64,000 nt of DNA, taken from Coleofasciculus chthonoplastes F2-STO-03 (GTDB lineage: Bacteria > Cyanobacteriota > Cyanobacteriia > Cyanobacteriales > Coleofasciculaceae). The position numbers and the translations under genes are program-made. Location of the stretch: contig JAVJWO010000046.1 of the NCBI GenBank assembly GCA_040222015.1, positions 1 to 64,000 of the forward strand, given 5' to 3'. The notes below the pieces were generated by a model that worked only from the letters and a program-made list of their open reading frames with translations, did no database searches and was not told the origin of the DNA. Positions 27,174-43,830 of the stretch are shown one piece after another (position 1 is the first letter of the stretch; each line of letters opens with the position of its first letter).

Positions 27174-27290
27174 GTTTAAGGATCGGACAACGAACTGATA
27201 GCATCGATATCAAATAGATGCACAATGGAATAATTATAGGAGACTAACTGTTCCTGCCTTAATTAATTTATGTAGAATCAGCTTTTAGGA

Positions 27291-27338
27291 ATGCCAGGAG
27301 GCGGACTTGAACCGCCGACACGGGGATTTTCAGTCCCC
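27291..27338 (-). repeat. att site: duplicated 3' part of tRNA-Phe
   Basis: ATGCCAGGAGGCGGACTTGAACCGCCGACACGGGGATTTTCAGTCCCC, identical to 43757-43804. Confidence 0.97.
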
Positions 27339-27430
27339 AACATGACAAGCATAGCATGCAACACGCACTCAAGACAAAACTACATGCCAGGCGTGTATGT
27401 GATAACATCTCATTTTAGTGATAAAATAAC

Positions 27431-27760
27431 ATGCCAGAGCCAACAGTTCCGCAAGTATTCGGTTCAAACGCAAATCAAACAGATTTAATTTTGGAAATTA
27501 AAAAAGCAGATTTAGCAACCGTTGGATTGACCCCAAACGCTAACAATACTGCTGAATCTATGTTTGTGGCTTTACTGCTTTTGAATAGGCAACATTTAAA
27601 TACTGACAATCAAGCAAATGATTCAGATATTCAGATTACAATTCAGGATGGACCGGAAAGCCTAGTGGAGCGGAATGGTACTACGTACCGCCAAAGATTA
27701 TTCTATATTTATTTAGATACCCCAGACTCGCCCGCTACACTTGATCCAAATCAATTCTAA
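27431..27760 (+). CDS. Element hypothetical protein (paralog of the 28527-29003 product)
   Basis: 109 aa, first gene of the coupled operon, GLTPNANNTAES motif. Confidence 0.8.
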   Translation: MPEPTVPQVFGSNANQTDLILEIKKADLATVGLTPNANNTAESMFVALLLLNRQHLNTDNQANDSDIQITIQDGPESLVERNGTTYRQRLFYIYLDTPDSPATLDPNQF

Positions 27761-28527
27761 TGATTGCAACTATTGACCAGAAAAACTTAGTTTCCCTGAC
27801 TCAAGATTTGCTCGTTGACGAAATAAAACTAGCAGCGGCTAAAACTAGCTTGGGAATTCCATTTGATGAGTACACATCGGGAACGGATAAGTACTTAGTA
27901 TTCGAGGTTGTCCAAGACGCCAATGCTGCTTTTGGCAAAATTTACCACCATTGGCAAATACGATTTGACTTACGAATTTATTCTCGCCTCTATTCTGATT
28001 GGGTAGCAGCCAACAAAACCGGACTTGATGACAGCGGTTCTTTTTACCATGACACTCTTAATAATACCGATCCAGTTACACTTTTAACTGTAAATGGGGG
28101 GAGCGAATACCAATTTATTATTTTTTCTCAGGGTAGCATTTTGGTGGTTCTGGGTGGAGTTTACCCAGCAAAAAAACCGGACTGGTGGGATTTATCTAGC
28201 TGGAATTATTATTTTACTCCTGATTACAACGACTATCGACGATTTCGATCAACAGCAAAAAATCCTTTTTCAAATCAATATCATGATGTTTCCTTGAAAA
28301 ATTCCCGAATGGAAACCGCAAATATACACACGGGGCGACGCGATATCCTTCAGGGGATATTATTTTTTACGCAATCGAATCAAGGAATAAGTGGGAAATC
28401 TTCTGATGATTTGGTGAGTTGTTCCGCTGCTGGATCATCCTTAGGGGATGTGATAGAAGTGGTGACGGGGGAACGTTATTTGGTTTTAGACAAAAGTGCT
28501 GGAGGATTGGGAGTTCGTATTGCTTAA
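27760..28527 (+). CDS. Element hypothetical protein, possibly structural
   Basis: 255 aa, aromatic and beta-rich composition, TAATG coupling at both ends. Confidence 0.75.
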   Translation: MIATIDQKNLVSLTQDLLVDEIKLAAAKTSLGIPFDEYTSGTDKYLVFEVVQDANAAFGKIYHHWQIRFDLRIYSRLYSDWVAANKTGLDDSGSFYHDTLNNTDPVTLLTVNGGSEYQFIIFSQGSILVVLGGVYPAKKPDWWDLSSWNYYFTPDYNDYRRFRSTAKNPFSNQYHDVSLKNSRMETANIHTGRRDILQGILFFTQSNQGISGKSSDDLVSCSAAGSSLGDVIEVVTGERYLVLDKSAGGLGVRIA

Positions 28528-29003
28528 TGAATTATACAAGCTCAACTGTTATAAGTGGAAAGCTCAGGCTTATTTCAAGTCTGACCATTAATTCCAGCGT
28601 AAATAGCGGGAAGTATCAAAGTGCCGGAAGGTTAACTGTACAGCTTGCTTTTGTGCAATATGATAGTTTATTTGCCCGTTTATTTGGAATGCAAAGTTGG
28701 CAAGATGGAGACAGTCTATATATTGTAAAATCTGGCTTACCCGGAATAACTCCAGCCGCTAGTAACACGGCTGAATCGTTGCTAGTTTCGTTGTTGATAA
28801 AAGCTTTCTTGGCTGAAAGTAGCGACCTAGGGACATTTTTATTTATAAGCACAGAAGAGGTGAATTTTTTGCAAAGAGCGGGGCGGAAGTGGCGAAGACA
28901 AGCAATCTCAGTGAGGTTCAGAAAAAGGACGGAAGCTATTAATTATAGTTTTCTAGACGCTAGTAAGTTAATCGAGCCAAACGATTATGAGTTATTGCAA
29001 TAA
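28527..29003 (+). CDS. Element hypothetical protein (paralog of the 27431-27760 product)
   Basis: Start reassigned to the ATG in the TAATG overlap (MNYTSS...), GITPAASNTAES motif. Confidence 0.75.
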   Translation: MNYTSSTVISGKLRLISSLTINSSVNSGKYQSAGRLTVQLAFVQYDSLFARLFGMQSWQDGDSLYIVKSGLPGITPAASNTAESLLVSLLIKAFLAESSDLGTFLFISTEEVNFLQRAGRKWRRQAISVRFRKRTEAINYSFLDASKLIEPNDYELLQ

Positions 29004-29607
29004 TAGTGTTAAAGCCTTGGTTACCTATACCTTTAAGGGGGAAAGTAATTCAAAAAAAAGATTTGAAACAAAAAAAACACCAATAGAAGTAGAGGCGGGA
29101 TCTAAGCCAATTCCAGCAGGCGAAAATTATAATGCAGAAGGATTTGAAATTTATTTTTATAGCCCCAATAATAGAAGATGGATACGAAGTATAGTTCAAG
29201 ACTATTTGATTTACCCTATTTCATCCCCTGGACGTTATTCACAGTATAACTATGCAGGTATTGCTATGTGGGGCTGCGGACAAAGTGATTTTCAAAGAGT
29301 TTCAGATGGAACTGTTGTCGGACCTGGAATTGATGTTGACTCTTTACAAATAGACACATCAGTAAAATGTCCTGTACCACCTGTACCAATGGAAAGCATT
29401 TGTCATTTGAAGGTATTGCACCAAGGGATAGTGATTCATCAAGACCAAGGAGAATGCCCGGTTAACTGGACAATTGATTGTGATCCATGCCCACCTAATA
29501 CAATTCGTTGTGTTGAAGGGGGGAAAGTAAGGTGTGTACCGTGTTCTGAGCTTTTAAATCCGCTTAAGCAAATAACATCAAAACTGAAACAGATTAATAA
29601 TGGCTGA
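28987..29607 (+). CDS. Cys-rich element protein
   Basis: 206 aa, C-terminal [19 protein letters not shown]...RCVPCSEL cluster. Confidence 0.75.
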
Positions 29608-31372
29608 TTGTTGTGCAGAATTGAAAAGAGAGATAGCAGCCTTAAAAGGGGAGGTAGCTAAACTTGATGGTAAATTTTTAAAAAAAAGTGAGAGGGGGGG
29701 GATCGTCAAGGACGGCGGAAACTTGGGGAAAAAACTAACCCTCCCACTTGTGGGGGGAATGATCGCGACTCAAGTTAGCCCGGTTAACGCAAAAGCGATC
29801 GCGGCGTTGGAAAAAGCTTTTGCTGCCAGCAGTGCGGCTGGTGCAGCACAAGCAACAGCAGGCAGCGCGTTGGCTAAAATTGGAGCCCTTGTCGCTAAGG
29901 TCGCGGGTTTAGCCGCTGCTATTGCCGGGTTAATCGCTAGTATTGCTGCATTAAAAATTCTTGGCTCTCGAATTGATGCTTTAGAGCGGCGAATTAATTC
30001 CTTAGACTCCGCGATAAGTAAAATTTACAGTTCGATCACGCCAATAAAATCAACGGCTCAACGTGCGTTAGAAACGGCTCGCCAAGCTTTGACCAGGGCA
30101 TTGAAGCCAGGACCTAAAGGTGAGCCGGGGAAAGACGGTAAACCCGGAGTTGATGGTAAACCTGGACCAGCAGGTAAACCTGGACCAGCAGGTACGCCTG
30201 GAAAAGATGGTAAACCTGGATATCCTGGTGAGCCAGGACCAATTGGTAAACCTGGACCAGCAGGTAAACCAGGGGTGGACGGTAAACCTGGACCAGCAGG
30301 AAAAAATGGAAAGGACGGAAAGGACGTGGACGAGAACAGACAAAGGCTAATGGAACAAATGCTTCGGGAAATTCGAGGAAATACAAATTTAATTCCACCA
30401 ATCCCAGCATTAATCAACAAAAATTCTCCATCTGGCGAATTATTTAAGCAGGGCGTGAGTGAAGGCTTTTGTCGAACAACCAAGCCTGGTGGATGTATGA
30501 CCAAAGCATTGAATCCAATCAATAATGGAATTGGGCAAAATGCTAACAAATTGAATGGATTGAATGCTCTGCTTAACGGAGTCCATTTGGGATTCTTAAA
30601 AAGAATCGACAATAAACTTGGCGCACAAATTAAGGGTGGAATTGGCGGGAAGTTAACTAAAATAGGAGAATGGCTGAGAATTCCCCAAGCCTTGAATATT
30701 CTTACTTATATAAATACGCTTGTACAGCTAGCGCATGTAACAAGCGGCTTAGGGCAAATTCTTGGAGAAGCCACAAGTACAGGTCTTGCTGTCCTTGGAT
30801 TCAAAGATGAAAATGGAAGCCAGCTGGACATCAACCAAATTCTTGGTAAACAAGTTTCAGATTTGGCTAGACAAATTCTAGGAAATGATGTCTACGCCGA
30901 CATCTCTACAAAGTGGAAGGCGGCGAACCGTATTTATCAGGCTAGTGCTAATGTTGCAGGAATTGTTACAAATTTAAATAACGATATACTCAATGGCATT
31001 GAGCTTGTCGGTGAGAACACAGGAAAAATTGGGAATTCTTTAAAACGAGCCAGGGTGGTGGCTGAAACGGATTTTAATTGGATGCCGGAACGGGTAAACA
31101 GGGGGACTCTGTTATTTCAGCGGATTGAGAACTTAGATGAAACTGCTAACACTTTGCAGCAAATTTTTCAGGTTCCACTTGATATACAAGAAAGACGCCT
31201 TGAGTTGAGAGAAGCAAATTTAGAATTTGAGAAGACTTTAAAAGAGGAGCTCCCTCGGTTACGCGAAGATAATCAGCCAGTCAAAGAAGCGGTAGAGGCT
31301 GCCAAGACAACTTCTAGAATCGCACTTGACAATATTGGAGAAACTAACACAGAGTCAGGTGATCTTATATAA
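29600..31372 (+). CDS. Collagen-like fibre/spike protein
   Basis: 24 uninterrupted Gly-X-Y triplets (30110-30325), preceded by an Ala-rich hydrophobic helix and coiled coil. Confidence 0.85.
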
Positions 31373-32196
31373 TGGTGTTACCATCAAATTTTTCGCCAGC
31401 AGAACACTTACAGGATTTAATCCGGAAAGTATGGAACAAAAAAGTACGAGAGCATTTTAAGGACCTTGGTGGTGCAGAATGGGAGCCTGACCTTAATTCC
31501 AGTCGAGCGCAGTACAGGGTTGGCTGCACTCATTTAGAAAATGACACGACAGTCATGACTCAGTTGCGAATTGAATTATTAAAGGATATTAAAAGTAGCT
31601 CGGTTGGAAATTATCAATATGTTTTTGGAGTGCCTAAAGACAAGCTTGATGGCGAGGTCGCTTATGTTCCACAGGTAACGCTGTATTTCTGCCAAAAATC
31701 AATAGATGTCGAACCCGGAAAGCATTTTAAAGAAGGGGAAATTACGTTCAGGTGGGTTGAAGAAACAGAAGAATCGATTACATCGGCAAAAATAGAGAAT
31801 TTGGCAAATAAGATTAAATTGAAATTTACCAATCCCACTTATAGGTGGAGTAAGGGGAAAACTTATTATTATTACTATGACAAGCAAAAAGGATATGATT
31901 TTAGGTTGCTGGCGAGAAATATTACAGAAGCCAAACGCATAATTGCAGACACTTTGGATCTGAGAAATGATACTCCCGACTGGAAAAATCACTTGAGATT
32001 TACTGAGGTAGAGAATCCCAGGGAAACTTTTCCGGAGAATGCGGGGACAAAAACAGTCTTGTCAAAATCCAGGAAAAAACCTGTACGGCGTCCAGAGGTT
32101 GACGTTTATTTTCGTTATGCCCTAATCAACATTCCATTGGTCGCAACCATTACGCTTGTCGATCTAACTGGAACCCGTTCTCGTCCAGTTGTTTAA
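31372..32196 (+). CDS. Element hypothetical protein
   Basis: 274 aa, TAATG coupling to the collagen gene. Confidence 0.8.
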   Translation: MVLPSNFSPAEHLQDLIRKVWNKKVREHFKDLGGAEWEPDLNSSRAQYRVGCTHLENDTTVMTQLRIELLKDIKSSSVGNYQYVFGVPKDKLDGEVAYVPQVTLYFCQKSIDVEPGKHFKEGEITFRWVEETEESITSAKIENLANKIKLKFTNPTYRWSKGKTYYYYYDKQKGYDFRLLARNITEAKRIIADTLDLRNDTPDWKNHLRFTEVENPRETFPENAGTKTVLSKSRKKPVRRPEVDVYFRYALINIPLVATITLVDLTGTRSRPVV

Positions 32197-32294
32197 TTGG
32201 GGACAATTTCAATCGGTTCACCATAGTAAACCGACCGCAAAAAACAATAAATTGCGGTGCTATGCTGGAAAAACGACGCACAATTTATTGAATT

Positions 32295-32885
32295 ATGGCA
32301 AGAAGACTATCAAGCTGGATACTTGAACGACGTCTAGAGCAGACTCGTGCCCGCGAACAATATTTGACGAACAAAAACAAGCAAGACGAAACTTTTAACG
32401 GTAATGTTGAAGCTCGACCACTTGTCCGAGTGGGTTACCGGAGTTTATTGCAGCTCATTGGGGCGACTCCAGCACCGGCGATGGTCGCCATTCAAGCGTC
32501 GGAATCAGCTTGCAAATGGTATGAGGGACTTGGCACAACCGGGACGCTGGGAGCTACCCATACAAAGCTTGGCTTAACTTACGGAGATTTAGCGGACTTC
32601 TTAGAAGTTGATAAATTTGACGCCAGTAAGATTATTTCCAAGCTTGGCGGAACCCCCACGGCGGTTCGCACTGCATGGGGATCTAGGTACATTCGATATA
32701 CAAAATCCGGAGAAGGAAATGCAAGGGCTTCGTATACTGCGCCTATCAGCGTTAAAACTGGAGCGGTAACCGTTTCAGCTATAGAGTCCGCAGCTCAAGC
32801 TATAGCAACTGCCGTAGCTACTGATATTGGTAGCAATGGAAGTATTTACTTGGAATTCGAGCAATCTACTAATCGCATTGTTTAA
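32295..32885 (+). CDS. Element protein, candidate major structural protein
   Basis: 196 aa, basic N-terminus, Ala/Gly/Thr-rich, preceded by the only sizeable gap in the operon; function is inference only. Confidence 0.7.
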   Translation: MARRLSSWILERRLEQTRAREQYLTNKNKQDETFNGNVEARPLVRVGYRSLLQLIGATPAPAMVAIQASESACKWYEGLGTTGTLGATHTKLGLTYGDLADFLEVDKFDASKIISKLGGTPTAVRTAWGSRYIRYTKSGEGNARASYTAPISVKTGAVTVSAIESAAQAIATAVATDIGSNGSIYLEFEQSTNRIV

Positions 32886-33115
32886 TGATCGAAATTGATC
32901 CAATTCACAAGCTAATTAGCATTCCTGCTATTTGGGTTCCTGACCCAGATGTACAAATGCAGGAAATTGTCAATATGATTGAGCGATCAAGGGTCGCTCA
33001 ATCATTCCTTAGAGGGGAAATTTCCTTCGATGACTACTTGTGCTTTCTTGCAGAACAAGGATTTGACCCGTTGGAATTTTATGCTATTTGGAATGCTGGA
33101 GGGACGTTTCTATGA
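32885..33115 (+). CDS. Small acidic element protein
   Basis: 76 aa, TAATG and ATGA coupling on both sides. Confidence 0.7.
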   Translation: MIEIDPIHKLISIPAIWVPDPDVQMQEIVNMIERSRVAQSFLRGEISFDDYLCFLAEQGFDPLEFYAIWNAGGTFL

Positions 33116-33636
33116 CTTTGCAGATTAATGTTACTGGTAGTGGCCAATGGGTTCTTGCTTACACAACAGCTAAGCAAGCGCCAGAAGACAGAGTTAAGTT
33201 TCGTAGTCGATATAAGCGACTAATAGATCCATTTGATATCCCTGTAACCTTTGCAAGCCATATAATTGCTATCGGAACAAGATACTTGAAAGCCCCAGCG
33301 ACATGGTACAATGCGGGGCAATTAATTCAGCTCGCAACTGGGGCAACAATTAATGATCCAGATGCTTGGGATGCTGGGTACACAGGAACAGAGCCAATTA
33401 TTGTTAGTCGAAAAAATGTCCGGCTAAATCAATCCTTGGAAATATTTTTCATGCAGCCTGTAGGTTCTGAACTGCAAATCGGTTTCAATCCGCGTCCGTG
33501 GATACCTGAATTCTCTATGGGAATCTATGAATTCATGGGTACTACCCTGGATACTACGGAAGAACTGATAGAAGCGGCTAGGGCGCAATTGACAACTATA
33601 GAAGCAAAAGTTGATGTTATTAATAGCAAGATATAA
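33112..33636 (+). CDS. Element hypothetical protein
   Basis: Start reassigned to the ATGA overlap (MTLQINV...), C-terminal short coiled coil. Confidence 0.75.
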   Translation: MTLQINVTGSGQWVLAYTTAKQAPEDRVKFRSRYKRLIDPFDIPVTFASHIIAIGTRYLKAPATWYNAGQLIQLATGATINDPDAWDAGYTGTEPIIVSRKNVRLNQSLEIFFMQPVGSELQIGFNPRPWIPEFSMGIYEFMGTTLDTTEELIEAARAQLTTIEAKVDVINSKI

Positions 33637-34371
33637 ATGTCTAGCACGCAACATTATCGTTCTTTGAGCTTTGCCTTAAGGTTCAACGGCTCTGTTCCTG
33701 TGTGGAGTCGAGAACTTTACGAGCCAGCTACTATCAATAGCGCCGAAGTTTTCACGGATTATAAATATTCTGGCTTTATTGATCAGCTTCAGGTAATAAG
33801 TTCTATTCGGGGTAACCATCAGTTTAGCATTTGGCTTGACTGGGATGGAGTAGAAACACCGCTAACCAATAAAATAACTCTTACAAGAAACACCCCGCCG
33901 AGAGACTTGCTTCCAATTATTAGTGCAACGGGTATTTTTAAGATTTCCGAGGGATTTAAGTTAAAGATTCAACTGCATACCCCTGACAATTTAATTGAGG
34001 GGGACGTGATTACATTTTTGGGGTTTGCCAGAGAGGAAGGAATTATCACCACTCCAACCGAGCAAGCTCCTACTATAGAAGCTCCGATTCCTTTGACTTT
34101 AGAAGGAGGCTGGACTTTCACGGGAGATTCACCTTATTTACAAAAATATGGAGATTATGTAGAAATCGTTGGACAAGTAAGCCATCCGGGGACACCTGGA
34201 TTTCAAGAAAAAGTGCTAACTTTACCTAGTGGCTATAGACCGCCAAGTCAAATAATTTATTATGGGAGTGTAGATTCAAATCCGCCAAAATTAAGTATTG
34301 AAGCTTCAGGAGAGGTAAAATACTGGTTTGGTGCAACAAGTTTTCCAATTGATTTTATCTTTAAAATATAA
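33637..34371 (+). CDS. Putative receptor-binding/fibre tip protein
   Basis: Pro/Thr linker then LEGGW...LQKYGDYVEIVGQV...VLTLPSGYRP...LSIEASGEV, resembling C-terminal heads of phage tail fibres. Confidence 0.65.
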   Translation: MSSTQHYRSLSFALRFNGSVPVWSRELYEPATINSAEVFTDYKYSGFIDQLQVISSIRGNHQFSIWLDWDGVETPLTNKITLTRNTPPRDLLPIISATGIFKISEGFKLKIQLHTPDNLIEGDVITFLGFAREEGIITTPTEQAPTIEAPIPLTLEGGWTFTGDSPYLQKYGDYVEIVGQVSHPGTPGFQEKVLTLPSGYRPPSQIIYYGSVDSNPPKLSIEASGEVKYWFGATSFPIDFIFKI

Positions 34372-34373
34372 AC

Positions 34374-34766
34374 ATGAGCTATGCATTTTACATACGCATT
34401 AACAAAGGGGGTTTAATAGACGTTACAGGGCGAGCCGCTTTTAGAATTGGTCGAACTAAAAGCAAACTAGAACCCAATAAAATTATCATAGAAGATAGGA
34501 CTATTAGCTCAATTCATTGTACGATTTTGGTGTGTAATGAACCAACTAAGTTACAACCAAACTTTTGGGTTTGGGACGGGGATGGCGTTACAGCATCTAA
34601 AAACAAGACTATAGTTAATGGGACTCGGATTTTAAATGGTGCAAGTCCGCTTGAATCTGAAAAAGGTTGCAAATTATATCATGGTGATTATATCTTGCTG
34701 GGAAAACACGAAATAAGATTCATTATATCAGAAGAAAAAAGCAACAAAAAAAATGGTACAATCTGA
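34374..34766 (+). CDS. FHA domain protein
   Basis: FRIGR, ISSIH, DG...SKNKT.VNG and L.HGD.I.LG FHA motifs. Confidence 0.82.
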   Translation: MSYAFYIRINKGGLIDVTGRAAFRIGRTKSKLEPNKIIIEDRTISSIHCTILVCNEPTKLQPNFWVWDGDGVTASKNKTIVNGTRILNGASPLESEKGCKLYHGDYILLGKHEIRFIISEEKSNKKNGTI

Positions 34767-34768
34767 CA

Positions 34769-35080
34769 ATGGAATTAGTAGAAATAATTGGAGTGGCGAT
34801 AGGAATAATTGGATGCTATTTGTCCTTGCGCGAGGCAATGCTTAAAAAGTTTTCGGAGGCTGAGTCAATAGCACAAAAACTATCCTTCAATAACGACAGG
34901 AGATGTGATGAGGTAGAATCTCTTGGAAGAAGAAACGAGGCTAATATTAAAATGTTATTTTTTCTCTTTGAATTTTTAAATAAACATGAGCAAAGCCAGA
35001 CACCTGAAACACATATTAGAGATATTTCAATACCTACAGGACAAAAAAACGTCGGCGGGAATAATACACAACAAGACTAA
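34769..35080 (+). CDS. Small membrane protein (holin-like architecture possible)
   Basis: N-terminal TM helix IIGVAIGIIGCYLSL followed by a coiled coil. Confidence 0.6.
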   Translation: MELVEIIGVAIGIIGCYLSLREAMLKKFSEAESIAQKLSFNNDRRCDEVESLGRRNEANIKMLFFLFEFLNKHEQSQTPETHIRDISIPTGQKNVGGNNTQQD

Positions 35081-35408
35081 TAATATTGTGTATCGCAATC
35101 CTGCCAGTGAAGTACTTATGGAAAAATGGTACAATCAATTTCCCCAATTCTCCCCGCCCAGAAATACAAGTGAATTGCAGTCAAGCCTACGCATGAATGA
35201 ACTTGCTGCAGAAATAAAGAAACTACGCCCTATTGAGCGATTACCGTCTACTAGCTTTTTTACTAAAGAGTATATCTTGACATTTGAGGGGATTGGGGAC
35301 GTAATTGTAAGAGATAAATTTTACCGTTTTAATTTTGGCTGTCAAGTATACAGGATTTTTGAAAACATCACTAGCTCTATGCCTGCCGCTGTCATTCGCG
35401 GCGATTGA
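34986..35408 (+). CDS. Hypothetical protein, possible degenerate PAS-like fold
   Basis: AGIIHNKTNNIVYRNPASEVL resembles a PAS N-terminal motif; overlaps the upstream gene by 95 bp. Confidence 0.5.
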   Translation: MSKARHLKHILEIFQYLQDKKTSAGIIHNKTNNIVYRNPASEVLMEKWYNQFPQFSPPRNTSELQSSLRMNELAAEIKKLRPIERLPSTSFFTKEYILTFEGIGDVIVRDKFYRFNFGCQVYRIFENITSSMPAAVIRGD

Positions 35409-35655
35409 TACGTTCCACGGCTTTCCACCAGTAATAAGCTTCGGTTTTGCCCGGATCGCTAAATCTGGCTCTAGCGACTAACTTCTCTGCTCTTTCCGCG
35501 CCAACTGCGTTAATTAGCTTATTTTTTAGTTGTGGACTAGGTTCTTGTCGGGGTAAGGCTAACTTCTGAAATGGCGTGGGTTGTTTGTGTCGTTTTTTTG
35601 AATAAATTAAAATTGCTAAACTTGCAACGATAACGAGACAAATAGTTAACCACAT
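35392..35655 (-). CDS. Small membrane-anchored protein
   Basis: N-terminal TM, C-terminal LKNKL...AEKLV...PGKTEAYYWWKAVERINR. Confidence 0.7.
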   Translation of the reverse strand: MWLTICLVIVASLAILIYSKKRHKQPTPFQKLALPRQEPSPQLKNKLINAVGAERAEKLVARARFSDPGKTEAYYWWKAVERINRRE

Positions 35656-35752
35656 ATTAAAAATCGCTAAACTTTGCTCACTATAATTTGAAAGTGACAG
35701 GAGTTCAGCGATCGCAGTACAACTGAAGTATGACCCAAATCAGTGTACTGCC

Positions 35753-36037
35753 ATGATTGTAGCGTTTGTTGGCTTGTGCTTGTTGGTGGCTGGAGCGTTA
35801 ATCGTTTGGTTAGTGATAGTCGCCGGCGAACAGCGTAAGCCTGGATGGAAACCGCCAAAGATAAAAAGGGAGCGGAAGCTAGATCCACAATTGCAGCGAC
35901 GGTTGGAGCTGTTGGCGGGAAGCAAAAAAACGGCGCGGCGGTTGGTGATAGCTACAGCCCGGAGCAATCCTAAGAGAAGCACCCGATGGTGTCAGGAAAA
36001 AACTATCGCGGATTTAGAGCGTGATCGCAGGGTATAG
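35753..36037 (+). CDS. Small membrane-anchored protein (paralog of 35392-35655)
   Basis: N-terminal TM, C-terminal LQRRL...ARRLV...PKRSTRWCQEKTIADLERDRR. Confidence 0.7.
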   Translation: MIVAFVGLCLLVAGALIVWLVIVAGEQRKPGWKPPKIKRERKLDPQLQRRLELLAGSKKTARRLVIATARSNPKRSTRWCQEKTIADLERDRRV

Positions 36038-36045
36038 GGCATGAC

Positions 36046-36510
36046 TTACACGCTGGTAGCGATTATGTACGAAATCACTCCGAGCGTGAGAGCGATCGCC
36101 TCCACCAGTGCGATCGCTCTCCAGGAAGTGTGCGATCGCGCCGCCCCCAATCCTGCCAATATTTTTCGGATGTTTAGCTCATAATCTTCCCCAAATACCA
36201 CCCACTGTATCGAGGTGAGCGAATGGGGAAGTTTAAGTGCTGGGTTAAATACGATTGGCATGATGGGCTTGCGTGTCCACAAAGCTAATCTAAGCTCTTT
36301 CATGCACCATTCACTTTTAAGTGAATGGGCGCTAACAAAAAAGAGAAAATGTTGGCTGGTCAATATCCCACGCCTAATTTCCTGTTCCCACTGGCGACCT
36401 GGTGCAATATCGTCCCAATCTACCCAGCAGTTATAGAATTGGTCTAGATCTTCCACGATTCGACGAACCTTATTCGCATCCTCCCGGGCGTAACTAATGA
36501 ATAACTGCAT
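36046..36510 (-). CDS. TIR domain protein with C-terminal transmembrane helix
   Basis: LFISYARED, WVD..DIAPG..W..EI, S.WCMKEL (catalytic-type Glu), C-terminal AIALVEAIALTLGVISYIIA; start reassigned to MQLFISY. Confidence 0.87.
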   Translation of the reverse strand: MQLFISYAREDANKVRRIVEDLDQFYNCWVDWDDIAPGRQWEQEIRRGILTSQHFLFFVSAHSLKSEWCMKELRLALWTRKPIMPIVFNPALKLPHSLTSIQWVVFGEDYELNIRKILAGLGAARSHTSWRAIALVEAIALTLGVISYIIATSV

Positions 36511-37231
36511 CTTGTCGTCTGCGGTAATTATCATAAGATTGAGGCATTTCACCCCAAATCTTTCCATCTAGTTCTCTCCCTCTAGCTTTTGGAGTTCTAC
36601 CTCCCCACTGCTTAAAGAAAAATGCCACACCAGAAGATTGGCATTGGTCTCGGATACTTTGCGCCCACTCTAGCTTCATCGGACGATATTTATTCCCAGA
36701 TTCGCCACCAACAATGACCCAATGAATGCCGGTTAAATCAAGTTCTAAGTTACCGAGAAGCGGTTCGCAAGAGAGAAAACGCACATTGGCTGGAACTTGT
36801 CGCAGGGAATCAACACGGTGAACATAATCCTGATTTTCAACCGATACCCCCATCCAAATATTGTTATGCCAGTCGAGCTGAGGAGCCAGCTCAGCTAAGC
36901 GCTTGTGCCGCTTGGTCAAAATTTGATAGGTATGCTGACGTGTTTGACCCATCACATCAAACACGTCTTTGAGAAATTCGATGGGCACGCCTTCATGGAA
37001 CAAATCACTCATAGAGTTGACAAAAATGCGACTTGGCTTACGCCAACGCAAGGGTTGTTTTATGCGTTCCCGATGCAGGGTTAAATCAAATCCATTGGGG
37101 AAATTCTGACGAAACCGTTTAGTTAGTGCTTCTGCATAACAATGGGTACAACCTGGACTAACTTTGTTGCAGCCAATTGTGGGGTTCCATGTTCGGTCTG
37201 TCCACTCGATACCTGTATAAGTGCTAGCCAT
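36494..37231 (-). CDS. DUF5131 (phage Gp37/Gp68-like) protein
   Basis: TGIEWTDRTWNPTIGCNKVSPGCTHCYAE, IFVNSMSDLFH, FLSCEPLLG, WVIVGGESG, FFFKQWGG; start reassigned to MASTYTG. Confidence 0.92.
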   Translation of the reverse strand: MASTYTGIEWTDRTWNPTIGCNKVSPGCTHCYAEALTKRFRQNFPNGFDLTLHRERIKQPLRWRKPSRIFVNSMSDLFHEGVPIEFLKDVFDVMGQTRQHTYQILTKRHKRLAELAPQLDWHNNIWMGVSVENQDYVHRVDSLRQVPANVRFLSCEPLLGNLELDLTGIHWVIVGGESGNKYRPMKLEWAQSIRDQCQSSGVAFFFKQWGGRTPKARGRELDGKIWGEMPQSYDNYRRRQDAVIH

Positions 37232-37247
37232 ATTTAATTCTTTGTAT

Positions 37248-37478
37248 TTAAAAAGGTATTTCATCGTACCAATGTGCAGATCTTGAATTCCAGCACGGAG
37301 ATAACATATCCTTGGGAATTTTTGTCGCACACATAAACATTAGGACGACATTCAGGATAATTCGGCACTGGAACGGCAATCTTTTCCAGCGTGTCTCTTT
37401 CAGCACTGCGGGGCAAGGATATTTTAGGTCGTAGGCGAGAGTTCGCCAGAAGGAATAGTTGTGGTCAAAATTGTTCAT
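37248..37478 (-). CDS. Small hypothetical protein
   Basis: Fills the gap in the leftward operon, GGAGG upstream of MNNFDH. Confidence 0.45.
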   Translation of the reverse strand: MNNFDHNYSFWRTLAYDLKYPCPAVLKETRWKRLPFQCRIILNVVLMFMCATKIPKDMLSPCWNSRSAHWYDEIPF

Positions 37479-37480
37479 TT

Positions 37481-37819
37481 TCATTTTGCCTCCAATTTCG
37501 CGATCAGTGCGTCTGCCATCCAAACTGCTTCAGCAGGGCTAAGGCGATGCGCTCCAGTGGCCAATAAGCTCTGGAGCGCGATCGCGGCGAACTGTTCTCG
37601 TTTGGTTAGGTTTTCGCTAAATCCTTTGAGTACGGACTGAAAGGTGGACTCATGCAAAATTTCCGCATCTATGCCGTCTGCATCCAACAAAATCTCCTCA
37701 CAGCCGACGACCATTCGGATGAATCGGGTATCGCCGGCGCCTTCTCTATAGTCCCAATCAATTAGATCTATGCTCGCCAATCTAACTGTGTGAGTTGAAA
37801 AATTAATGAAGTCGTTCAT
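37481..37819 (-). CDS. Phage-type hypothetical protein
   Basis: C-terminal LTKREQFAAIALQSLL...AVWMADALIAKL motif common in small phage proteins; ATGA coupling to the XRE gene. Confidence 0.72.
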   Translation of the reverse strand: MNDFINFSTHTVRLASIDLIDWDYREGAGDTRFIRMVVGCEEILLDADGIDAEILHESTFQSVLKGFSENLTKREQFAAIALQSLLATGAHRLSPAEAVWMADALIAKLEAK

Positions 37820-38067
37820 TTTGGTGGGTCTGGTAAATCGTCAATCGTCATCCCGACCCTTGCCATGAGCTGGTGCAACTTCTTGTACTGCCAAAGTTCT
37901 AGGCGCAAACGGTGGCGCCCTTTTTCGTGGTTTCGCACCGTTTGTTCAGTGACGCCTATAAATTCTCCTAGTTGAGGCTGAGTCCATCCCAGCCGTTTTC
38001 GCAGTACTAGCAAAGTTTTTCCAGTGGGGTTGCAAGGTGAAAGGTTTTCATTTACCATTTTAGACAT
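37816..38067 (-). CDS. XRE-family HTH transcriptional regulator
   Basis: LRKRLGWTQPQLGEFIGVTEQTVRNHEKG; start at the ATG at 38067 or 38058. Confidence 0.88.
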   Translation of the reverse strand: MSKMVNENLSPCNPTGKTLLVLRKRLGWTQPQLGEFIGVTEQTVRNHEKGRHRLRLELWQYKKLHQLMARVGMTIDDLPDPPK

Positions 38068-38068
38068 A

Positions 38069-38089
38069 AACCGAAAAAGTTTTTCGGTT
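38069..38089. promoter_or_regulatory. Candidate operator palindrome
   Basis: AACCGAAAAA-G-TTTTTCGGTT perfect 10-1-10 inverted repeat immediately upstream of the XRE gene. Confidence 0.6.
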
Positions 38090-38396
38090 ATTACAAACCA
38101 CAAGCGCAAGAAAGGAGCTCAATGGCATGGGCACTCCTCTCTTGCGCCCTATAGGATACCGCGTTCTAGGTTCCGGTGAGACGCGATCGCAATAACTTGA
38201 AATGTGTTGAGGTATACAAAATGAAATGAGCGCATCACCCGAAAGCAGGTGAGACTAACTTGGATCTACTGACAACATTGGTTAATGCTCCTTTCTGTTT
38301 CTGACCACTACCTATCGGTGCTTATGACTAAAACACTCGCCCGATAGCTGGCGATACCATGCTCCTCATTGAATGGATGAAATTGTAAAGCCGAAC

Positions 38397-38436
38397 AAAA
38401 AACGGGGGTGGCAGTTTCCTCCCACCCCCGTTTTTT
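38397..38436. terminator. Bidirectional intrinsic terminator-like hairpin
   Basis: AAAAAACGGGGGTGG-10 nt-CCACCCCCGTTTTTT. Confidence 0.75.
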
Positions 38437-38450
38437 ATTTGAGGAAAATA

Positions 38451-38855
38451 ATGGAGAATTTAGAGGAATTTTTTAGGCACGATCAAAAGCTACATGGAGA
38501 AAAAGACGCCCACTTGCCACTCAGGAGGATATTTCATTGGAGGTTGGAAACTCCGAAGGCGTCTAAAGCCTTGATAGATTTACGATATTTTGGTTCGCGA
38601 GCTGTAATCGTTGCTTACAGCCAGCCCGGATATTTTAAGTTTAGTGAAGATTTCCTGTATGCATTTGATCGGTTATGCGGGGACTTTGGACTAGAATCAC
38701 ACAACACAGCCTGTTTCGAGTGGTTTCTGCACAAAGCGGACTTTAATATTTCTTCGGCTAAATACATGCAGTTTCGGCTGACTGCGAACATGGTAACCAG
38801 AGAAATTTTAGAGATAAATGATTTCCGCAGATTTCTAGAGCAACTATCGGAGTAG
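38451..38855 (+). CDS. Element hypothetical protein
   Basis: Start reassigned to MENLEEF, after GAGG RBS and downstream of the hairpin. Confidence 0.65.
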   Translation: MENLEEFFRHDQKLHGEKDAHLPLRRIFHWRLETPKASKALIDLRYFGSRAVIVAYSQPGYFKFSEDFLYAFDRLCGDFGLESHNTACFEWFLHKADFNISSAKYMQFRLTANMVTREILEINDFRRFLEQLSE

Positions 38856-38858
38856 CCA

Positions 38859-39176
38859 ATGGAAGAGAATTTTAAGGAAATAGTTCAATTGGCTATTTTG
38901 GCTTACTGGGCGACACATTCGCGAACAATAAATGATTATTCCGTGCAGCACGCACGGGAAAATGCGAAGATAATCAGCCAAAAATGCTCTCCCTTGTTCA
39001 GCGAGGCGAATGATGGTTACCCAAATGATGGTTGGGAGGGCTGGACCGTTTTTGCTTTGTTATGTGGGGGATTTTGCGCCTTTCGGGGACTCCCGTCTCA
39101 AAGCGAGCTTGAGTCGCTCCTAGATAAAGCAATTTCAATTTTCAATAGAGTTGAAAGCCAAAAACACGAACAATAA
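38859..39176 (+). CDS. Element hypothetical protein
   Basis: 105 aa, GGAG RBS, in the rightward operon. Confidence 0.65.
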   Translation: MEENFKEIVQLAILAYWATHSRTINDYSVQHARENAKIISQKCSPLFSEANDGYPNDGWEGWTVFALLCGGFCAFRGLPSQSELESLLDKAISIFNRVESQKHEQ

Positions 39177-39194
39177 AAAAGGGGCATAGCCCCT

Positions 39195-42100
39195 ATGAGT
39201 ATCATGTCAGAAAGAGTGATTAAAAATTCTCAACTTGACCATTATCTTAGCACACTTCCACCCCAAAATCTAGAGGCAGAAGAATCAGTATTGGGGGGAA
39301 TATTGCTCGACGAAAACGCAATGGCGCGAGTAGTCGAAACATTAACCCCAGAGGCGTTTTACATCAGCGCCCACCAAGAAATCTACCGGGCAGCATTAAC
39401 CCTATACAAACAGGGGGGGCTGACGGATTTCATGACCGTAACCGATTGGTTGTATGCACATAAACTACTGGATAAAATTGGCGGCCAAAACAAGATAGCA
39501 CAGCTTATCGATCGCACAGTTTCAGCCGTCAACATTGACCGTCACGCGGCGCTGGTGATGGATAAGTACCTACGCCGTCAACTCATCCAAGCGGGCAATG
39601 AGATTGCTTCGGTATTTGGGGATACTTTTAACCCAACAGATAAAGCCGTAGAGATAGCCCGAAATAAACTAGAAAACCTTATTCCCTTTTCAGAAAGTCG
39701 AAAGGAACGCGAATACAACAGCCTGATGGAGAAGGCTGAAAAAATAATTCTTTATGAAGACAACCCAGGAAAGCGTTTATGGGACTTACAGGGATTAGCT
39801 AAAAGACATGGCTTATCAGCACAAAAACTGGAAGAAATTTACTACAAGCACCTGCTTCACAAAGACTCTACACCGAGTATGACTTGGGATGAGTTAATCA
39901 AGCATGAATCAGATTCACCCGATTGGGTATATCACGGTTTTATGTTACGCGGCAGTTTGACACTTCTCTATTCAGCTCCTGGCGTGGGGAAAACGCTATT
40001 TTTCTACTTTTTGGCATTCTGTGCGGCAGCAGGAGTCAGCTGGGAGACAAAGATAGGGCAGTTCAGCGCAACTGCAAAACGCCGACGAATTCTATTTGTA
40101 CAATGTGACGAAACACGCCCGGAGATGATAAGAAGCCTAAGAAGATTAGGGTTCGATGCAACTCTGCAATGTCAATACCTGACGGACTGGAACGTAAATG
40201 AGATACCTAAACTAATAAGAGAGATTCAGTCTTTCAAGCCCGACGCAATTATTATCGACAGTCTAAGCTCCGTTGGCGACTGGACAGTAGAGGAAAATAA
40301 CACTAGATTTGCTGTTCCAGTTAATATGCTGCGTCGGCTAGCAGGTTTATTCAACTGCTGGATAGGGCTTACTCATCATGCTAATGCTGAAGGTGGGCTG
40401 AGAGGAACAACTGCTATAGCTGCGTCAGCCTCCACTGTTATCAAAATGGAGCGCATACAAGGACAGCCCCTGAGTTCTTCGCAACGAAAACTCATTTTCC
40501 AGAAGAATCGAGCTGGAACACCTTGGAGCGCTCATTGTCAAGTTAATTTTGAGACGGGCGGGTGGCAAATTTTGGAAGGGGTTGAAGGAACTGGAATTGA
40601 AACAGTAGGAGTACAGGGTAAAATATACTCCTTTCTTAAGGAGAACTCTCCCAAACGATACGAAACCAGGGAGATGGCGGAAATCTTGGCGCAAGCACAG
40701 CCCAGCATTCGTAGGGCGTGCAATCAATTATCGGGTCTTGGTTTGATTTCTAAGGTTCAACTGAATCGCAAATGTCTGTACTTCGTTCAAAGAGATGAGG
40801 ATGAGTGGGATGATGCCTCCCCAGACCCAGGAGGCGATCATGGCGATCATGTCGATCCTGAAGCGATCACGGGGGATGGATCGCATCCAAACTCTTTCCA
40901 GCAGGGAGATTCAGCTAGTAGCGATCATGCGATCGCCCAAAATCAAAAATCAGATGAGCAATTTGAAGATGAAAAAATCGATGATCGGTTGATCGCTTCC
41001 GCTGAAACCACGCTAAATCAGGAAGTTGAATGCGATCCTGCTAGGGTGATCGCTTCAGGATCGCTTCAGGATCGGATCGCGATCGAGAACTATCGGGGGC
41101 TAACTATCAAGCAGCCCCATGCTCAAAGATTTTCCCAAGGTCTGAAGCGGTACGAAGTGAGATCGCGGAAAACGAATTACCGAGGATTAATCCTTATTCA
41201 TTCGTCCAAGGAATATGAAAAAGGATTCGGGATGGATCGGACGCTGGCAGAGGTCGAGTATCCAACGGGAAAAATTTTGGCAGTTGCCGAACTGACCGAT
41301 TGCATCGAAATTACAGAATCTTTCCTGAACGAACAACCAGAAGAGGAGTTATTCGGCGGGTACTGGCAGCTAGGGCAGTGGGCATGGAAATTGGAGAATA
41401 TTCGCCCCGTCCATCCTTACCCTGGTGCAGCGGGTAACTTTATGCTCTGGACGCCACAGATAGATCACTTAGAGGGAGTGGAGATTGGCGATCGAGTGGA
41501 TGTGAATAATGACTCATACGTAGTTCCAGAAATTGTCGGGCTTATTCAGGAGCTTTTAGAAGTCGAAGGGGGAAAGCCATGGGTTACCCTTAGGAACATC
41601 AAGGGATTAAGCAAAAGGCAGCGCAATGAGATCCTTCGCCGCTTGTTGGTGACTGGGCGTGGATATCGCATAATTTGGGATGGGAACAATCCCGACTGGG
41701 GGGTAATTGATCCGGCGCTAATTAAGCGAAAAGAATTGATAGATTTGCGCTCTCCATCGAAGTCATCAAAGAGTGTGTATGCTTTTTGTCAAGGTGAAGA
41801 CGGCTCGACAGAATATTTTGATGTATTCGATGAGTTCTTTTTCCAGGACGATCGCCGCGAAATCCCCAAGCTTTCCGATCGCGAAAAGGCGGAAGCCAAG
41901 CAGAAGGCTTTTGAGAAAGTAATGAAAGCTTTGGGCGAACATGAAGGACCTGGCGCTGAACCCGTAACCGATGATGAAGCTCCTGGCGTTGAACCCGTAA
42001 CCGATGATGAAGCCCCTGGCGTTGAACCCGTAACCGATGATGAAGCCCCTGGCGTTGAACCCGTAACCGATGATGAAGCCTCTGGCGTTGAACCCGTAAC

Positions 42101-42467
42101 CACACCAGATCCAGATATATTTGACCAGATTCAGGTAGGCGATCGCTTGATTTCAAACAATGGTGCTACCTGTATTTGCATCAAGAAAAAGCTCAATCCA
42201 AAACAAATTACAGTCAGGTGGGGCGGGGGGTCCGTAACTGAATTGGATGATGTTTTCATTGAAATCATGCGATTGCAGATTAAAACCCGCCTAAGACCTG
42301 GGCTGCGTGTACGTTATCAACATTGGCATGGACGTTTGAGTTCCAAGCTAAAAAATAATAAATGGTATGTAAACTGGGAGGGATTTTTCGACCAAGGATT
42401 ACGCAAAAAATACGGGGAACCGCCCAAGAGCGCGATCGCACCCCAGGACTTTGAGGTAGTCGAATGA
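39195..42467 (+). CDS. Replication protein: DnaB N-terminal domain, AAA_25/RepA-type helicase, wHTH, ASCH, repeats
   Basis: LPPQNLEAEESVLGGILLD DnaB-N; Walker A SAPGVGKT; Walker B AIIIDSL; HHAN..LRGTTA; ASCH LTIKQP..G.KRYEVRS..TNYRG.ILIH. Confidence 0.85.
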   Translation: MSIMSERVIKNSQLDHYLSTLPPQNLEAEESVLGGILLDENAMARVVETLTPEAFYISAHQEIYRAALTLYKQGGLTDFMTVTDWLYAHKLLDKIGGQNKIAQLIDRTVSAVNIDRHAALVMDKYLRRQLIQAGNEIASVFGDTFNPTDKAVEIARNKLENLIPFSESRKEREYNSLMEKAEKIILYEDNPGKRLWDLQGLAKRHGLSAQKLEEIYYKHLLHKDSTPSMTWDELIKHESDSPDWVYHGFMLRGSLTLLYSAPGVGKTLFFYFLAFCAAAGVSWETKIGQFSATAKRRRILFVQCDETRPEMIRSLRRLGFDATLQCQYLTDWNVNEIPKLIREIQSFKPDAIIIDSLSSVGDWTVEENNTRFAVPVNMLRRLAGLFNCWIGLTHHANAEGGLRGTTAIAASASTVIKMERIQGQPLSSSQRKLIFQKNRAGTPWSAHCQVNFETGGWQILEGVEGTGIETVGVQGKIYSFLKENSPKRYETREMAEILAQAQPSIRRACNQLSGLGLISKVQLNRKCLYFVQRDEDEWDDASPDPGGDHGDHVDPEAITGDGSHPNSFQQGDSASSDHAIAQNQKSDEQFEDEKIDDRLIASAETTLNQEVECDPARVIASGSLQDRIAIENYRGLTIKQPHAQRFSQGLKRYEVRSRKTNYRGLILIHSSKEYEKGFGMDRTLAEVEYPTGKILAVAELTDCIEITESFLNEQPEEELFGGYWQLGQWAWKLENIRPVHPYPGAAGNFMLWTPQIDHLEGVEIGDRVDVNNDSYVVPEIVGLIQELLEVEGGKPWVTLRNIKGLSKRQRNEILRRLLVTGRGYRIIWDGNNPDWGVIDPALIKRKELIDLRSPSKSSKSVYAFCQGEDGSTEYFDVFDEFFFQDDRREIPKLSDREKAEAKQKAFEKVMKALGEHEGPGAEPVTDDEAPGVEPVTDDEAPGVEPVTDDEAPGVEPVTDDEASGVEPVTTPDPDIFDQIQVGDRLISNNGATCICIKKKLNPKQITVRWGGGSVTELDDVFIEIMRLQIKTRLRPGLRVRYQHWHGRLSSKLKNNKWYVNWEGFFDQGLRKKYGEPPKSAIAPQDFEVVE
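41941..42101 (+). repeat. 33-bp in-frame tandem repeat, about five copies (EAPGVEPVTDD)
   Basis: CCTGGCGTTGAACCCGTAACCGATGATGAAGCC repeated inside the replication gene. Confidence 0.93.
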
Positions 42468-43543
42468 GCCGCCGCAACAAGGGAACCGTAGCCATCGAAT
42501 CCGTAAAGGGGCGGTTACGGCTGCGGCTTCCCCGATTTTGCCCCATAAGATATCTATCTCTCAATCTCTCTGACACCGCCCGAAACCGAAAAATAGCTTC
42601 GGCTAAAGCCGGACAAATAGAGTCAGACATCATATTTGAACGGTTTGATATTACGCTCAATCGATATAGAAATCCTTTACAGCTACCCAAGGGTAAAACT
42701 CCACTCTTAGAAATTTGGGATGCTTACGTTCAAACGCGGGTGCAGGTAATCAGTCAGACTACGCTCAATACTGACTATAAACGAGTACGTGATCGATTAA
42801 TCGCTTACCCTACCACCTTAGATAAAACCGTAATTTTTAAAAACTGGCTGACCAAAAACTACAAGCTGGGAAGCGTGAGGCGAATCTTGAGCCAACTTCG
42901 ATCGGCGTGTGAGTGGGCTGTGGAAGAAGGCTTAATCGAATCCAATCCGTTTAAGCAGCTTCCCAAGGCTCAAGTTAGTACATCCGCGCCGGACCCATTC
43001 ACAAAAGAGGAGCGAGACTTAATTATTCGAGGATTTGCGGAAAGTTTCTACTATAAGCATTACACCCCATTTGTGAAGTTTCTGTTCTGGACAGGGTGTC
43101 GAACATCTGAAGCGATCGGGCTTCAGTGGCGACACATCGATCAAGAGCAAAAATTCATAACTTTTGAAGAGGCGCTGGTAAATGGAGTTCGCAAAGACAC
43201 AAAAACTCATAAGCCCCGACGTTTTCCGACAAACCAAGCTATTCGCAATTTACTTGAGGACAGGCAGCCGGAGCCGCCAGATTTCAGGCGATTGGTCTTT
43301 CGATCAAAGCGGGGATTAGCTATAGACTCCCACAATTTCCTGAATCGGGCATGGCGATCGGTGTTGGGGGGATTACCCATCAGATACCGAAAGCAGTATT
43401 GCACCAGGGCGACCTTTATCACTCTTTGCCTTGAAGAAGGCGTCCCAGTAGCACAGGTTGCCGCTTGGGTGGGAAATTCGCCTAAAACTATCTGGCAGCA
43501 TTACGCCGGAATCGTAAGCGCGATCGCAGTGCCAGAACCATAA
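42464..43543 (+). CDS. Tyrosine recombinase/integrase with N-terminal arm-binding domain
   Basis: GRLRLRLP N-terminal domain, TGCRTSE, TKT, YCTRATF, VGNS, HYAG; ATGA coupling to the replication gene. Confidence 0.93.
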   Translation: MSRRNKGTVAIESVKGRLRLRLPRFCPIRYLSLNLSDTARNRKIASAKAGQIESDIIFERFDITLNRYRNPLQLPKGKTPLLEIWDAYVQTRVQVISQTTLNTDYKRVRDRLIAYPTTLDKTVIFKNWLTKNYKLGSVRRILSQLRSACEWAVEEGLIESNPFKQLPKAQVSTSAPDPFTKEERDLIIRGFAESFYYKHYTPFVKFLFWTGCRTSEAIGLQWRHIDQEQKFITFEEALVNGVRKDTKTHKPRRFPTNQAIRNLLEDRQPEPPDFRRLVFRSKRGLAIDSHNFLNRAWRSVLGGLPIRYRKQYCTRATFITLCLEEGVPVAQVAAWVGNSPKTIWQHYAGIVSAIAVPEP

Positions 43544-43705
43544 GCGATCGCCATTCGAGTGCCGGAAAAATTTGCCTAAAGCTACTCGATCTAGCTAGGC
43601 GGTGGGATGCAGAGCCTGACCCAGAGGACAAATAATATCCAAACCATATCCATTTTGGGCAAAAACCTTAAAAATATTTTCAAAACCACGAATAGTACAT
43701 AAACA

Positions 43706-43744
43706 CTAAAAGACGCTACACACTCGCAGTGCAGCGTCTTTTAG
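43706..43744 (-). terminator. Hairpin downstream of tRNA-Phe (inside the element)
   Basis: CTAAAAGACGCT...AGCGTCTTTTAG 12-bp inverted repeat. Confidence 0.7.
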
Positions 43745-43757
43745 GTGGTATACTTGA

Positions 43758-43830
43758 TGCCAGGAGGCGGACTTGAACCGCCGACACGGGGATTTTCAGT
43801 CCCCTGCTCTACCGACTGAGCTATCCCGGC
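43758..43830 (-). tRNA. trnF: tRNA-Phe (GAA)
   Basis: Reverse complement GCCGGGATAGCTCAGTCGGTAGAGCAGGGGACTGAAAATCCCCGTGTCGGCGGTTCAAGTCCGCCTCCTGGCA folds into a cloverleaf with anticodon GAA; CCA not encoded. Confidence 0.97.

Follow-up and report, generated by a model that had tools for sequence, protein, structure and literature searches.

We analyzed a 64,000-nt stretch of contig JAVJWO010000046.1 from Coleofasciculus chthonoplastes F2-STO-03 (positions 1 to 64,000, forward strand; hereafter the window), which carries a 16.5-kb prophage-like element. A gene of this element encodes a 1090-amino-acid protein, P0001, in a single open frame with zero internal stops, and we estimate a probability of about 0.7 that P0001 is an all-in-one, primase-less initiator-helicase that recruits the DnaG primase of its host. 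In the mechanism that we propose, a winged helix would bind short GATC-containing repeats located in the protein's own gene, an AT-rich patch between two groups of repeats would open, and a RepA-type motor would assemble there as a ring on single-stranded DNA. The DnaB-type N-terminal domains (NTDs) would then form a collar on which host DnaG would dock through its C-terminal domain, so that the element would need no primase. Capture of the NTD from the dnaB of the resident host would have happened repeatedly, in a slot that sister proteins fill with a primase, and the domain would then have been kept under protein-level selection, presumably for compatibility with the DnaG of that host; the ASCH domain and the tail modules would be exchangeable accessories.

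Domain anatomy and distribution of P0001

Pfam detected a DnaB N-terminal domain at residues 22-122 (E 3e-28) and an AAA_25 motor at residues 230-399 (E 2.7e-22), and the motor also matched the RepA structure 1g8y (E 5e-4). The motor has a RecA core with Walker A K266, D305-E306, Walker B D355, H394-H395, R403-G404, and K437-x-R439, which we take to be the motifs (Walker A/B, HH, RG, K-x-R) of the RepA/AAA_25 family. Across 127 aligned rows, its catalytic residues hardly vary (K266 100%, D305 100%, D355 98%, R439 94%), and hexamer formation and 5'-3' unwinding would be expected from the family. An AlphaFold model of residues 19-540 (mean predicted local distance difference test (pLDDT) 87, predicted template modelling score (pTM) 0.67, 33-row alignment) predicted a helical NTD, a helical linker, the RecA core, and a three-helix/two-strand winged helix, the putative origin-binding domain. 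As some relatives without a DnaB domain keep the same helical linker, the domain junction was placed before it. The PDB matches of the NTD to DnaB cover profile positions 17-167.

The host has its own intact dnaB on another contig (C56), and the named relatives of both P0001 and the host DnaB are Coleofasciculus. The model of residues 19-540 aligns end to end with DnaB structures, which are its best PDB matches (E 1e-20, template modelling score 0.3-0.45), as would be expected if P0001 were a diverged paralog of whole DnaB and not a chimera. This explanation is largely refuted, and we regard it as very improbable: the host DnaB matches P0001 only at residues 4-168 (59% identity), the Pfam scan found no DnaB_C motor, and full-length similarity to bacterial DnaB is missing, the TIGR00665 score being 138 bits against a cut-off of 385 and confined to residues 21-185. 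Moreover, the motor falls among primase-fused AAA_25 motors (all motor trees cited here are quick trees), and the relatives P0007-P0009 are 61-65% identical to P0001 in the N-domain but 27-29% in the motor.

An assembly or frameshift artefact, or a dead remnant, is the least probable of the explanations considered. No sequencing run was found that covers the element, and a related locus (L113) has apparently lost both the repeat array and the ASCH domain; yet the same fusion, including ASCH, is present in intact independent relatives (P0002, of 952 residues, P0005, and P0007-P0009), and the element has perfect 48-bp attachment repeats and an intact integrase.

A first search returned 30 near-full-length matches, including P0003, a truncated call of P0001 itself. 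Among the best 150 representatives of a profile search (50% clustering), 126 have the NTD and the motor, and 117 of these 126 have the winged helix as detected by our own profile; within the order of the host, 63 of the 401 genomes have the motor. Judged by these matches, the core of NTD, linker, RepA/AAA_25 motor, and winged helix makes up a large cyanobacterial family. No motor relatives were found in viral contigs with a single-protein query, and no phage or plasmid record covered 80% of the core. Outside cyanobacteria, a Streptomyces mobaraensis plasmid protein (WP_242879963.1; L203:7989-9314) has a DnaB N-domain followed by an AAA_25-like motor. It is about 440 residues long and 24% identical, our own profile detected no winged helix in it, and its architecture probably arose independently, as if actinomycetes had come to the same solution; no study of this protein was found.

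A preliminary description of this DNA had recognized the DnaB-like N-terminal region, the RepA/AAA_25 motor, and the winged helix behind it, all of which were borne out. One outcome that it had named as refuting was partly found: the combination of DnaB-N and AAA_25, under names assigned automatically, is already widespread in databases, and it occurs outside cyanobacteria too. What makes P0001 interesting is less its ASCH domain than the exchange of primase for NTD, the match of the NTD to the host, and the probable origin within the gene. No paper on P0001 or its element family was found in full texts, most subscription papers lying outside that search. The helicase domain plans in Figure 2 and the supplements of PMC4889955 could include the architecture; here and below, papers cited by accession are represented by portions of their text. 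Two others (PMC5512222 and bioRxiv 10.1101/2023.04.12.536658) were set aside as having, in those portions, no bearing on the DnaB-N + AAA_25 family.

The N-terminal slot and the host primase

The occupant of the N-terminal slot was surveyed in 79 motor frames from 401 genomes and 8 named loci. A DnaB domain was found in 35 of the 79. Another 39 N-terminal parts, each longer than 60 residues, were scanned: Prim-Pol or PriCT_2 exceeded the Pfam cut-off in 9, and 8 more matched PHROG primase families. No protein had both a primase and an NTD, either among the scanned frames or among the 126 NTD representatives (0/126). On a quick motor tree of 48 rows, the state of the slot (NTD or primase) changes at least 5 times, the direction not being inferred. 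A swap of one domain, made several times on one motor family, would amount to a modular switch between an own primase and a borrowed host primase. Two groups of motors have unassigned N-domains in the slot (L102, L124, and L125; L148, L150, L154, L159, L161, L167, and L171), which are possibly decayed primases or other host-recruiting domains.

No primase was recognized among the 24 open reading frames (ORFs) of the element by PHROG and NCBIfam scans, 20 of them being scanned with Pfam as well. Likewise, the 218 ORFs of at least 150 residues within 7 kb of 28 NTD helicases (several of these loci stop at contig ends) contained no primase family, save for a 19-residue match below the cut-off in a tail-repeat protein.

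The captured N-domain resembles the DnaB of its own host. In 27 element-host pairs, ranked among 26 host DnaBs, the own host was in the top 3 for 18 pairs, and for 20 after removal of row and column means. The median rank of the own host was 2 (permutation p 5e-5), and restricting the set to one element per family (n=12) gave the same result, the family assignment of six named Nostocales genomes being our own. Residues found in a minority of hosts were shared by the host's own element at 237 of 686 sites, against 63 expected. In a careful tree, from which an element fragment (L011) and six dnaB paralogs had been dropped, five single pairs show the element NTD joined to its own host by a starred branch, and element NTDs also nest within Nostocales hosts. 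A single clade of element NTDs was rejected by an approximately unbiased (AU) test (p=0.00027). This value is tempered by its basis: removal of paralogs, near-duplicates, and long branches left 50 of 91 rows, with 133 columns, and the bootstrap had not settled. The phylogeny that the preliminary description had proposed as a check thus groups the N-domain with host DnaB lineage by lineage.

The NTD of P0001 has no resolved place in the careful tree; it joins its genus in the quick tree, and its own host ranked first. Over the aligned domain, it is 69% identical to the host DnaB in amino acids, and 13 of 43 four-fold sites are identical, as expected by chance, which argues for an old, selected match. 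A recent capture at the DNA level was rejected on the same count, synonymous sites being saturated. Taken together, the host-matched NTDs point to repeated capture from host dnaB, which is the simpler reading; related elements are not statistically independent, and some of the pattern could come from parallel adaptation. Six loci (L013, L014, L032, L078, L193, and L195) have a second copy of a DnaB-like helicase in which the N-domain is host-like and the C-terminal part has diverged; matching of the N-domain to the host may be general in cyanobacterial mobile elements.

Primase docks on DnaB N-domains, which DnaA also contacts (PMC5872134, the latter in a figure legend), and these domains build a trimer-of-dimers collar (PMC8216460). 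The host DnaG is encoded on contig C93; by sequence, no relative of its C-terminal domain was found in the PDB. When this domain was modelled together with two copies of the NTD, the complex scored 0.46, and the best of 3 controls scored 0.02; the runs shared at least 91% of contacts, and the pLDDT of the partner was 78. Of 157 solved complexes, 116 reach the mark applied to such scores, as do 2 of 215 mismatches. The prediction weakly supports binding, and we make no claim on individual residues because no paper giving DnaG-contact residues was found. The preliminary description had suggested that the element has no primase of its own and may recruit host DnaG through a captured DnaB-N. The exclusion in the slot, the scans for primases, and the grouping with hosts speak indirectly for this proposal; the complex check it had called for was passed weakly, and direct binding keeps the standing of a prediction.

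Several points weigh against recruitment of DnaG. Among the 39 N-terminal parts without a DnaB domain, 17 have no recognizable primase, and 5 are primase-like only by eye and by our own profiles. The clade of L102, L124, and L125, nested among the DnaB-type motors, has neither module, so these motors can exist with neither. A distant primase may exist, many loci ending at contig ends, and a primase of novel fold would escape the scans. Three elements do not match their hosts (L160, rank 14; L131, rank 13; L008, rank 11). Host matching itself does not single out DnaG, because the NTD also binds DnaA and builds the collar. As to the predicted complex, only 18 of the 157 solved complexes reached the mark with scores of 0.60 or less, but both of the mismatches did, and the pass may reflect likeness, since DnaB-DnaG complexes have already been solved (7t22). 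Finally, nothing shows the element to be active.

The NTD might instead be kept for another host-facing job, such as the collar, contact with DnaA or a loader, or mixed rings with host DnaB, with priming solved otherwise. The contacts of DnaB N-domains cited above (PMC5872134, PMC8216460) and the 17 sister N-terminal parts with neither module would suit this alternative, which we nevertheless judge unlikely: it leaves unexplained that the NTD replaces a primase and never stands beside one. A role in the collar alone would need no host matching, yet matching is seen, and the dimerizing hairpin is the least host-like part of the NTD, identity to the own host being 0.24-0.50 beyond residue 120 and 0.52-0.83 before it. 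Less probable still is a decoy role, in which the NTD would bind host DnaG, or poison the rings of host DnaB, to slow host replication on induction instead of serving the fork of the element. Host matching and the weak pass of the complex would fit a decoy equally well, but the NTD is fused to a motor with nearly invariant catalytic residues, in an element where no other primase was found. Recruitment of host DnaG is the explanation that we prefer. Since element domains and their host counterparts are available as pairs from many cyanobacteria, natural variants could be used to test how species-specific the binding of DnaB to DnaG is.

The GATC array and the C-terminal tail

Behind the winged helix, GATC occurs 15 times in the 249 bp of codons 548-630. 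No other place in the 7.7-Mb genome is as dense: the mean is 1.1 per 300 bp, and the second-densest place has 9. The motif overlaps the cyanobacterial HIP1 repeat, for which the genome-wide count is a control. The sites form two groups flanking a 40-mer of 78% AT (about 40939-40978), and the array carries a 38-bp inverted repeat (40853-40890/41026-41063). At least 8 GATC sites directly after the winged helix were found in 23 of 29 NTD relatives; only 1 of 16 primase forms has them, and among the remaining forms 2 of 16. The extended motif differs from element to element and occurs in both orientations, and some elements use a non-GATC motif. Synonymous recoding, which keeps the protein, yielded fewer GATC sites in 24 of 30 genes, and hence the constraint acts on DNA; the P0001 gene has 17, against a recoded mean of 5.5 and a maximum of 12.

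On these grounds, the array is probably a replication origin inside the gene. The origin of phage P4 consists of short iterons in both orientations around an AT-rich patch, and origins are located inside the lambda O and N15 repA genes; by analogy, the layout of the array would be that of an iteron origin. Binding of the repeats by the winged helix would complete the scheme. The preliminary description had overlooked both the array and the boundaries of the element, and the low-complexity stretch between winged helix and ASCH is better read as a DNA-level GATC array than as protein. A gene that held both initiator and origin would be a one-gene replicon, possibly of use as a vector in filamentous cyanobacteria, and its host range could be predicted.

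Several results count against this scheme. The GATC sites are biased among frames (225/82/48), and the array is missing in 6 of 29 DnaB-type relatives, most of which have another repeat motif. The close relative at L113 (8946-11609) has neither array nor ASCH, being probably a deletion derivative. The iteron motif covaries with the winged helix (rho 0.29) no better than with the motor (rho 0.27). Two candidate Dam-like methyltransferase frames in the host come from a motif search alone, and control of the array by methylation is speculation.

The ASCH domain is genuine, as had been described, and begins near 41088-41100 (Pfam residues 636-746, E 7.6e-5, 23.8 bits against a cut-off of 21.2); its octapeptide is retained in 8 aligned rows. 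It is also found in five close relatives (P0002, P0005, and P0007-P0009) and in L133. The fusion, previously called unusual, is real but is a sporadic accessory and not characteristic of the family: ASCH occurs in 2 of the 126 NTD representatives (P0160 and P0212) and in one N-truncated match (P0247). At L008 and L282, it is a separate gene. ASCH was probably gained more than once, because its bearers sit on different motor branches. We predict an accessory nucleic-acid binder or deacetylase, outside the core mechanism. The tails of P0012 and P0211, ASCH-like by eye, were not counted, as they match only phrog_11705 and not Pfam. Another accessory, a MutS_I-like domain, lies in the tail of P0188 (residues 670-726).

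The acidic repeats and the two beta-rich C-terminal modules of the preliminary description were both recovered, the former as 33-bp units and the latter as modules that align across six close relatives. The beta-rich modules had no Pfam match, the Atlas gave nothing for the C-terminal third of the protein, and by eye they look SH3/KOW-like. P0009 and P0001 are 27% identical in the motor and 74-85% in three tail modules; the C-terminal tail is a mosaic.

The surrounding element and known systems

The element spans 16,466 bp, is integrated in a tRNA-Phe gene, and is flanked by two identical 48-bp copies of the 3' end of tRNA-Phe (Table 1). A contig of run X1 links position 27290 to 43757, the empty site in a close relative. 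Attachment repeats, integrase, and empty site are those of an integrated mobile element.

Table 1 Features of the element, in window positions
Feature	Position	Strand	Basis
Left attachment repeat (48 bp), a copy of the 3' end of tRNA-Phe	27291..27338	+	Repeat search
Conserved module of unassigned genes (collagen-like 590 aa, 274 aa, 196 aa, 76 aa, 182 aa, others)	27431..34371	+	
XRE-type helix-turn-helix repressor candidate	37816..38109	-	Domain scans
Initiator-helicase gene, P0001 (proposed function)	39195..42467	+	Open frame, Pfam
DnaB NTD with helical hairpin, aa 19-165	39249..39689	+	Pfam, host DnaB comparison
Helical linker, aa 166-227	39690..39875	+	AlphaFold model, relatives
RepA/AAA_25 RecA-fold motor, aa 228-465	39876..40589	+	Pfam, aligned rows
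Winged helix, aa 470-535	40602..40799	+	Model topology; weak winged-helix Pfam matches in relatives
Putative in-gene replication origin	40836..41084		Repeat search, GATC counts, recoding
ASCH domain, glutamate-type octapeptide (G649, K651, E654, R656)	41088..41474	+	Pfam, alignment
Module of patchy distribution among close relatives (74% with P0005 and P0009, not present in P0002)	41490..41939	+	Alignment
33-bp acidic tandem repeats	41936..42100	+	Repeat search
Two short beta-rich C-terminal modules	42120..42464	+	Alignment
Tyrosine integrase, overlapping the helicase stop codon	42464..43543	+	Frames, Pfam
Right attachment repeat, inside tRNA-Phe (43758-43830, minus strand)	43757..43804	+	tRNA and repeat search

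The conserved module probably comprises virion genes. Its genes lie near 14 of 28 NTD loci, versus 0 of 23 primase loci of the same motor family, and its marker gene (274 aa) was found in 44 of 401 cyanobacterial genomes. Among 20 elements chosen by this marker (20 kb fetched each), 10 had a replication protein: DUF3854+VapE or D5 (4), VapE fragments (3), Prim-Pol+DUF3987 (1), a weak Toprim+AAA_25 (1), and a broken NTD+AAA_25 (1). The slot in module-bearing elements is thus normally taken by a primase plus helicase, and the module appears to mark a widespread family of small integrated cyanobacterial elements with interchangeable replication genes. This opens a common, unannotated prophage-like family to study.

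Scans of the 24 ORFs with PHROG and NCBIfam recognized no terminase, portal, or HK97 capsid. Lysin, tail-collar, and tail-repeat genes near some relatives suggest a virus. The conserved 196-aa protein (32295-32885; 26-row alignment) is predicted to fold well (pLDDT 82, pTM 0.72), and its model had no match in BFVD (best E 0.68) or the PDB (best Z 3.3, root-mean-square deviation 3.1, 57 aligned residues); this demonstrates neither a new fold nor a capsid, and we list it as a candidate virion protein of unrecognized fold. For the 274-aa protein, the Atlas gave only leads below 0.9 (unnamed clusters, and tail-terminator look-alikes at 0.82-0.83), and phage records gave zero matches. Two DNA runs cover only a small part of the element, and a promoter scan was at chance (8 found, 7.9 expected).

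The segment 36046-37330 holds possible defence or modification cargo: the gene of a small TIR_2 protein that ends in a hydrophobic helix, and a DUF5131 gene, of which contig C149 has a copy with 89% identity. An FHA-domain gene (34374-34766) is also present in L113. Elsewhere, genes for DpdA (deazapurine in DNA) adjoin related helicases (L006:3360-4109 and L115:1226-2236). In a wider interpretation, small cyanobacterial prophages of this kind would form a widespread class that has not been described before, and the fold of their virion proteins would be an unrecognized one. Their initiator would keep re-capturing the 5' end of host dnaB to fit the DnaG of that host, which would make the replisome a determinant of host range, and the in-gene GATC origin would be gated by host adenine methylation, read by the winged helix or, in proteins that have it, by ASCH. 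We regard this as doubtful.

P0001 resembles several known systems in part. The P4 alpha protein binds its origin via a C-terminal winged helix and, like P0001, has a helicase and a C-terminal (in P0001, putative) origin winged helix on one polypeptide (PMC4889955). P4 alpha has its own DnaG-type primase and a superfamily 3 (SF3) motor, whereas P0001 has a DnaB N-domain in the primase slot and an AAA_25 RecA-fold motor; among the features of alpha, P0001 has the C-terminal winged helix and lacks the N-terminal primase and the SF3 (D5) motor. Unlike in P4, the repeats of P0001 lie inside the gene. RSF1010 RepA and BFK20 gp43-type superfamily 4 helicases share its motor family and motifs. Such AAA_25 motors are frequently fused to archaeo-eukaryotic primases (PMC4889955), and relative to these helicases the primase in P0001 is replaced by a host-matched DnaB N-domain. 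The S. mobaraensis protein has the same two-domain plan, in a shorter form and in a plasmid context.

The ASCH domain of P0001 shares the G-x-K-x-x-E-x-R octapeptide with the GKER group (TthASCH, EOLA1, TRIP4, and ZmASCH), in which the Lys/Glu pair is needed for removal of N4-acetylcytidine (ac4C) from tRNA (bioRxiv 10.64898/2026.02.27.708502); ASCH domains are also predicted to read modified DNA (PMC7641849). Unlike in GKER proteins, this ASCH sits behind a replication helicase, and its substrate and activity are predictions.

The replication of SPP1 requires the phage DnaB-family helicase G40P together with host DnaG (PMC3561973), a pairing of phage helicase and host primase like the one proposed for P0001. 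G40P is a whole DnaB homolog that needs a separate origin-binding protein (G38P) and loader (G39P). Unlike G40P, P0001 is DnaB-derived only in its N-domain and has a RepA-type motor and its own winged helix. By analogy, P0001 would work like P4 alpha with the primase outsourced as in SPP1 G40P, and it belongs to neither of these two families, nor to DnaB.

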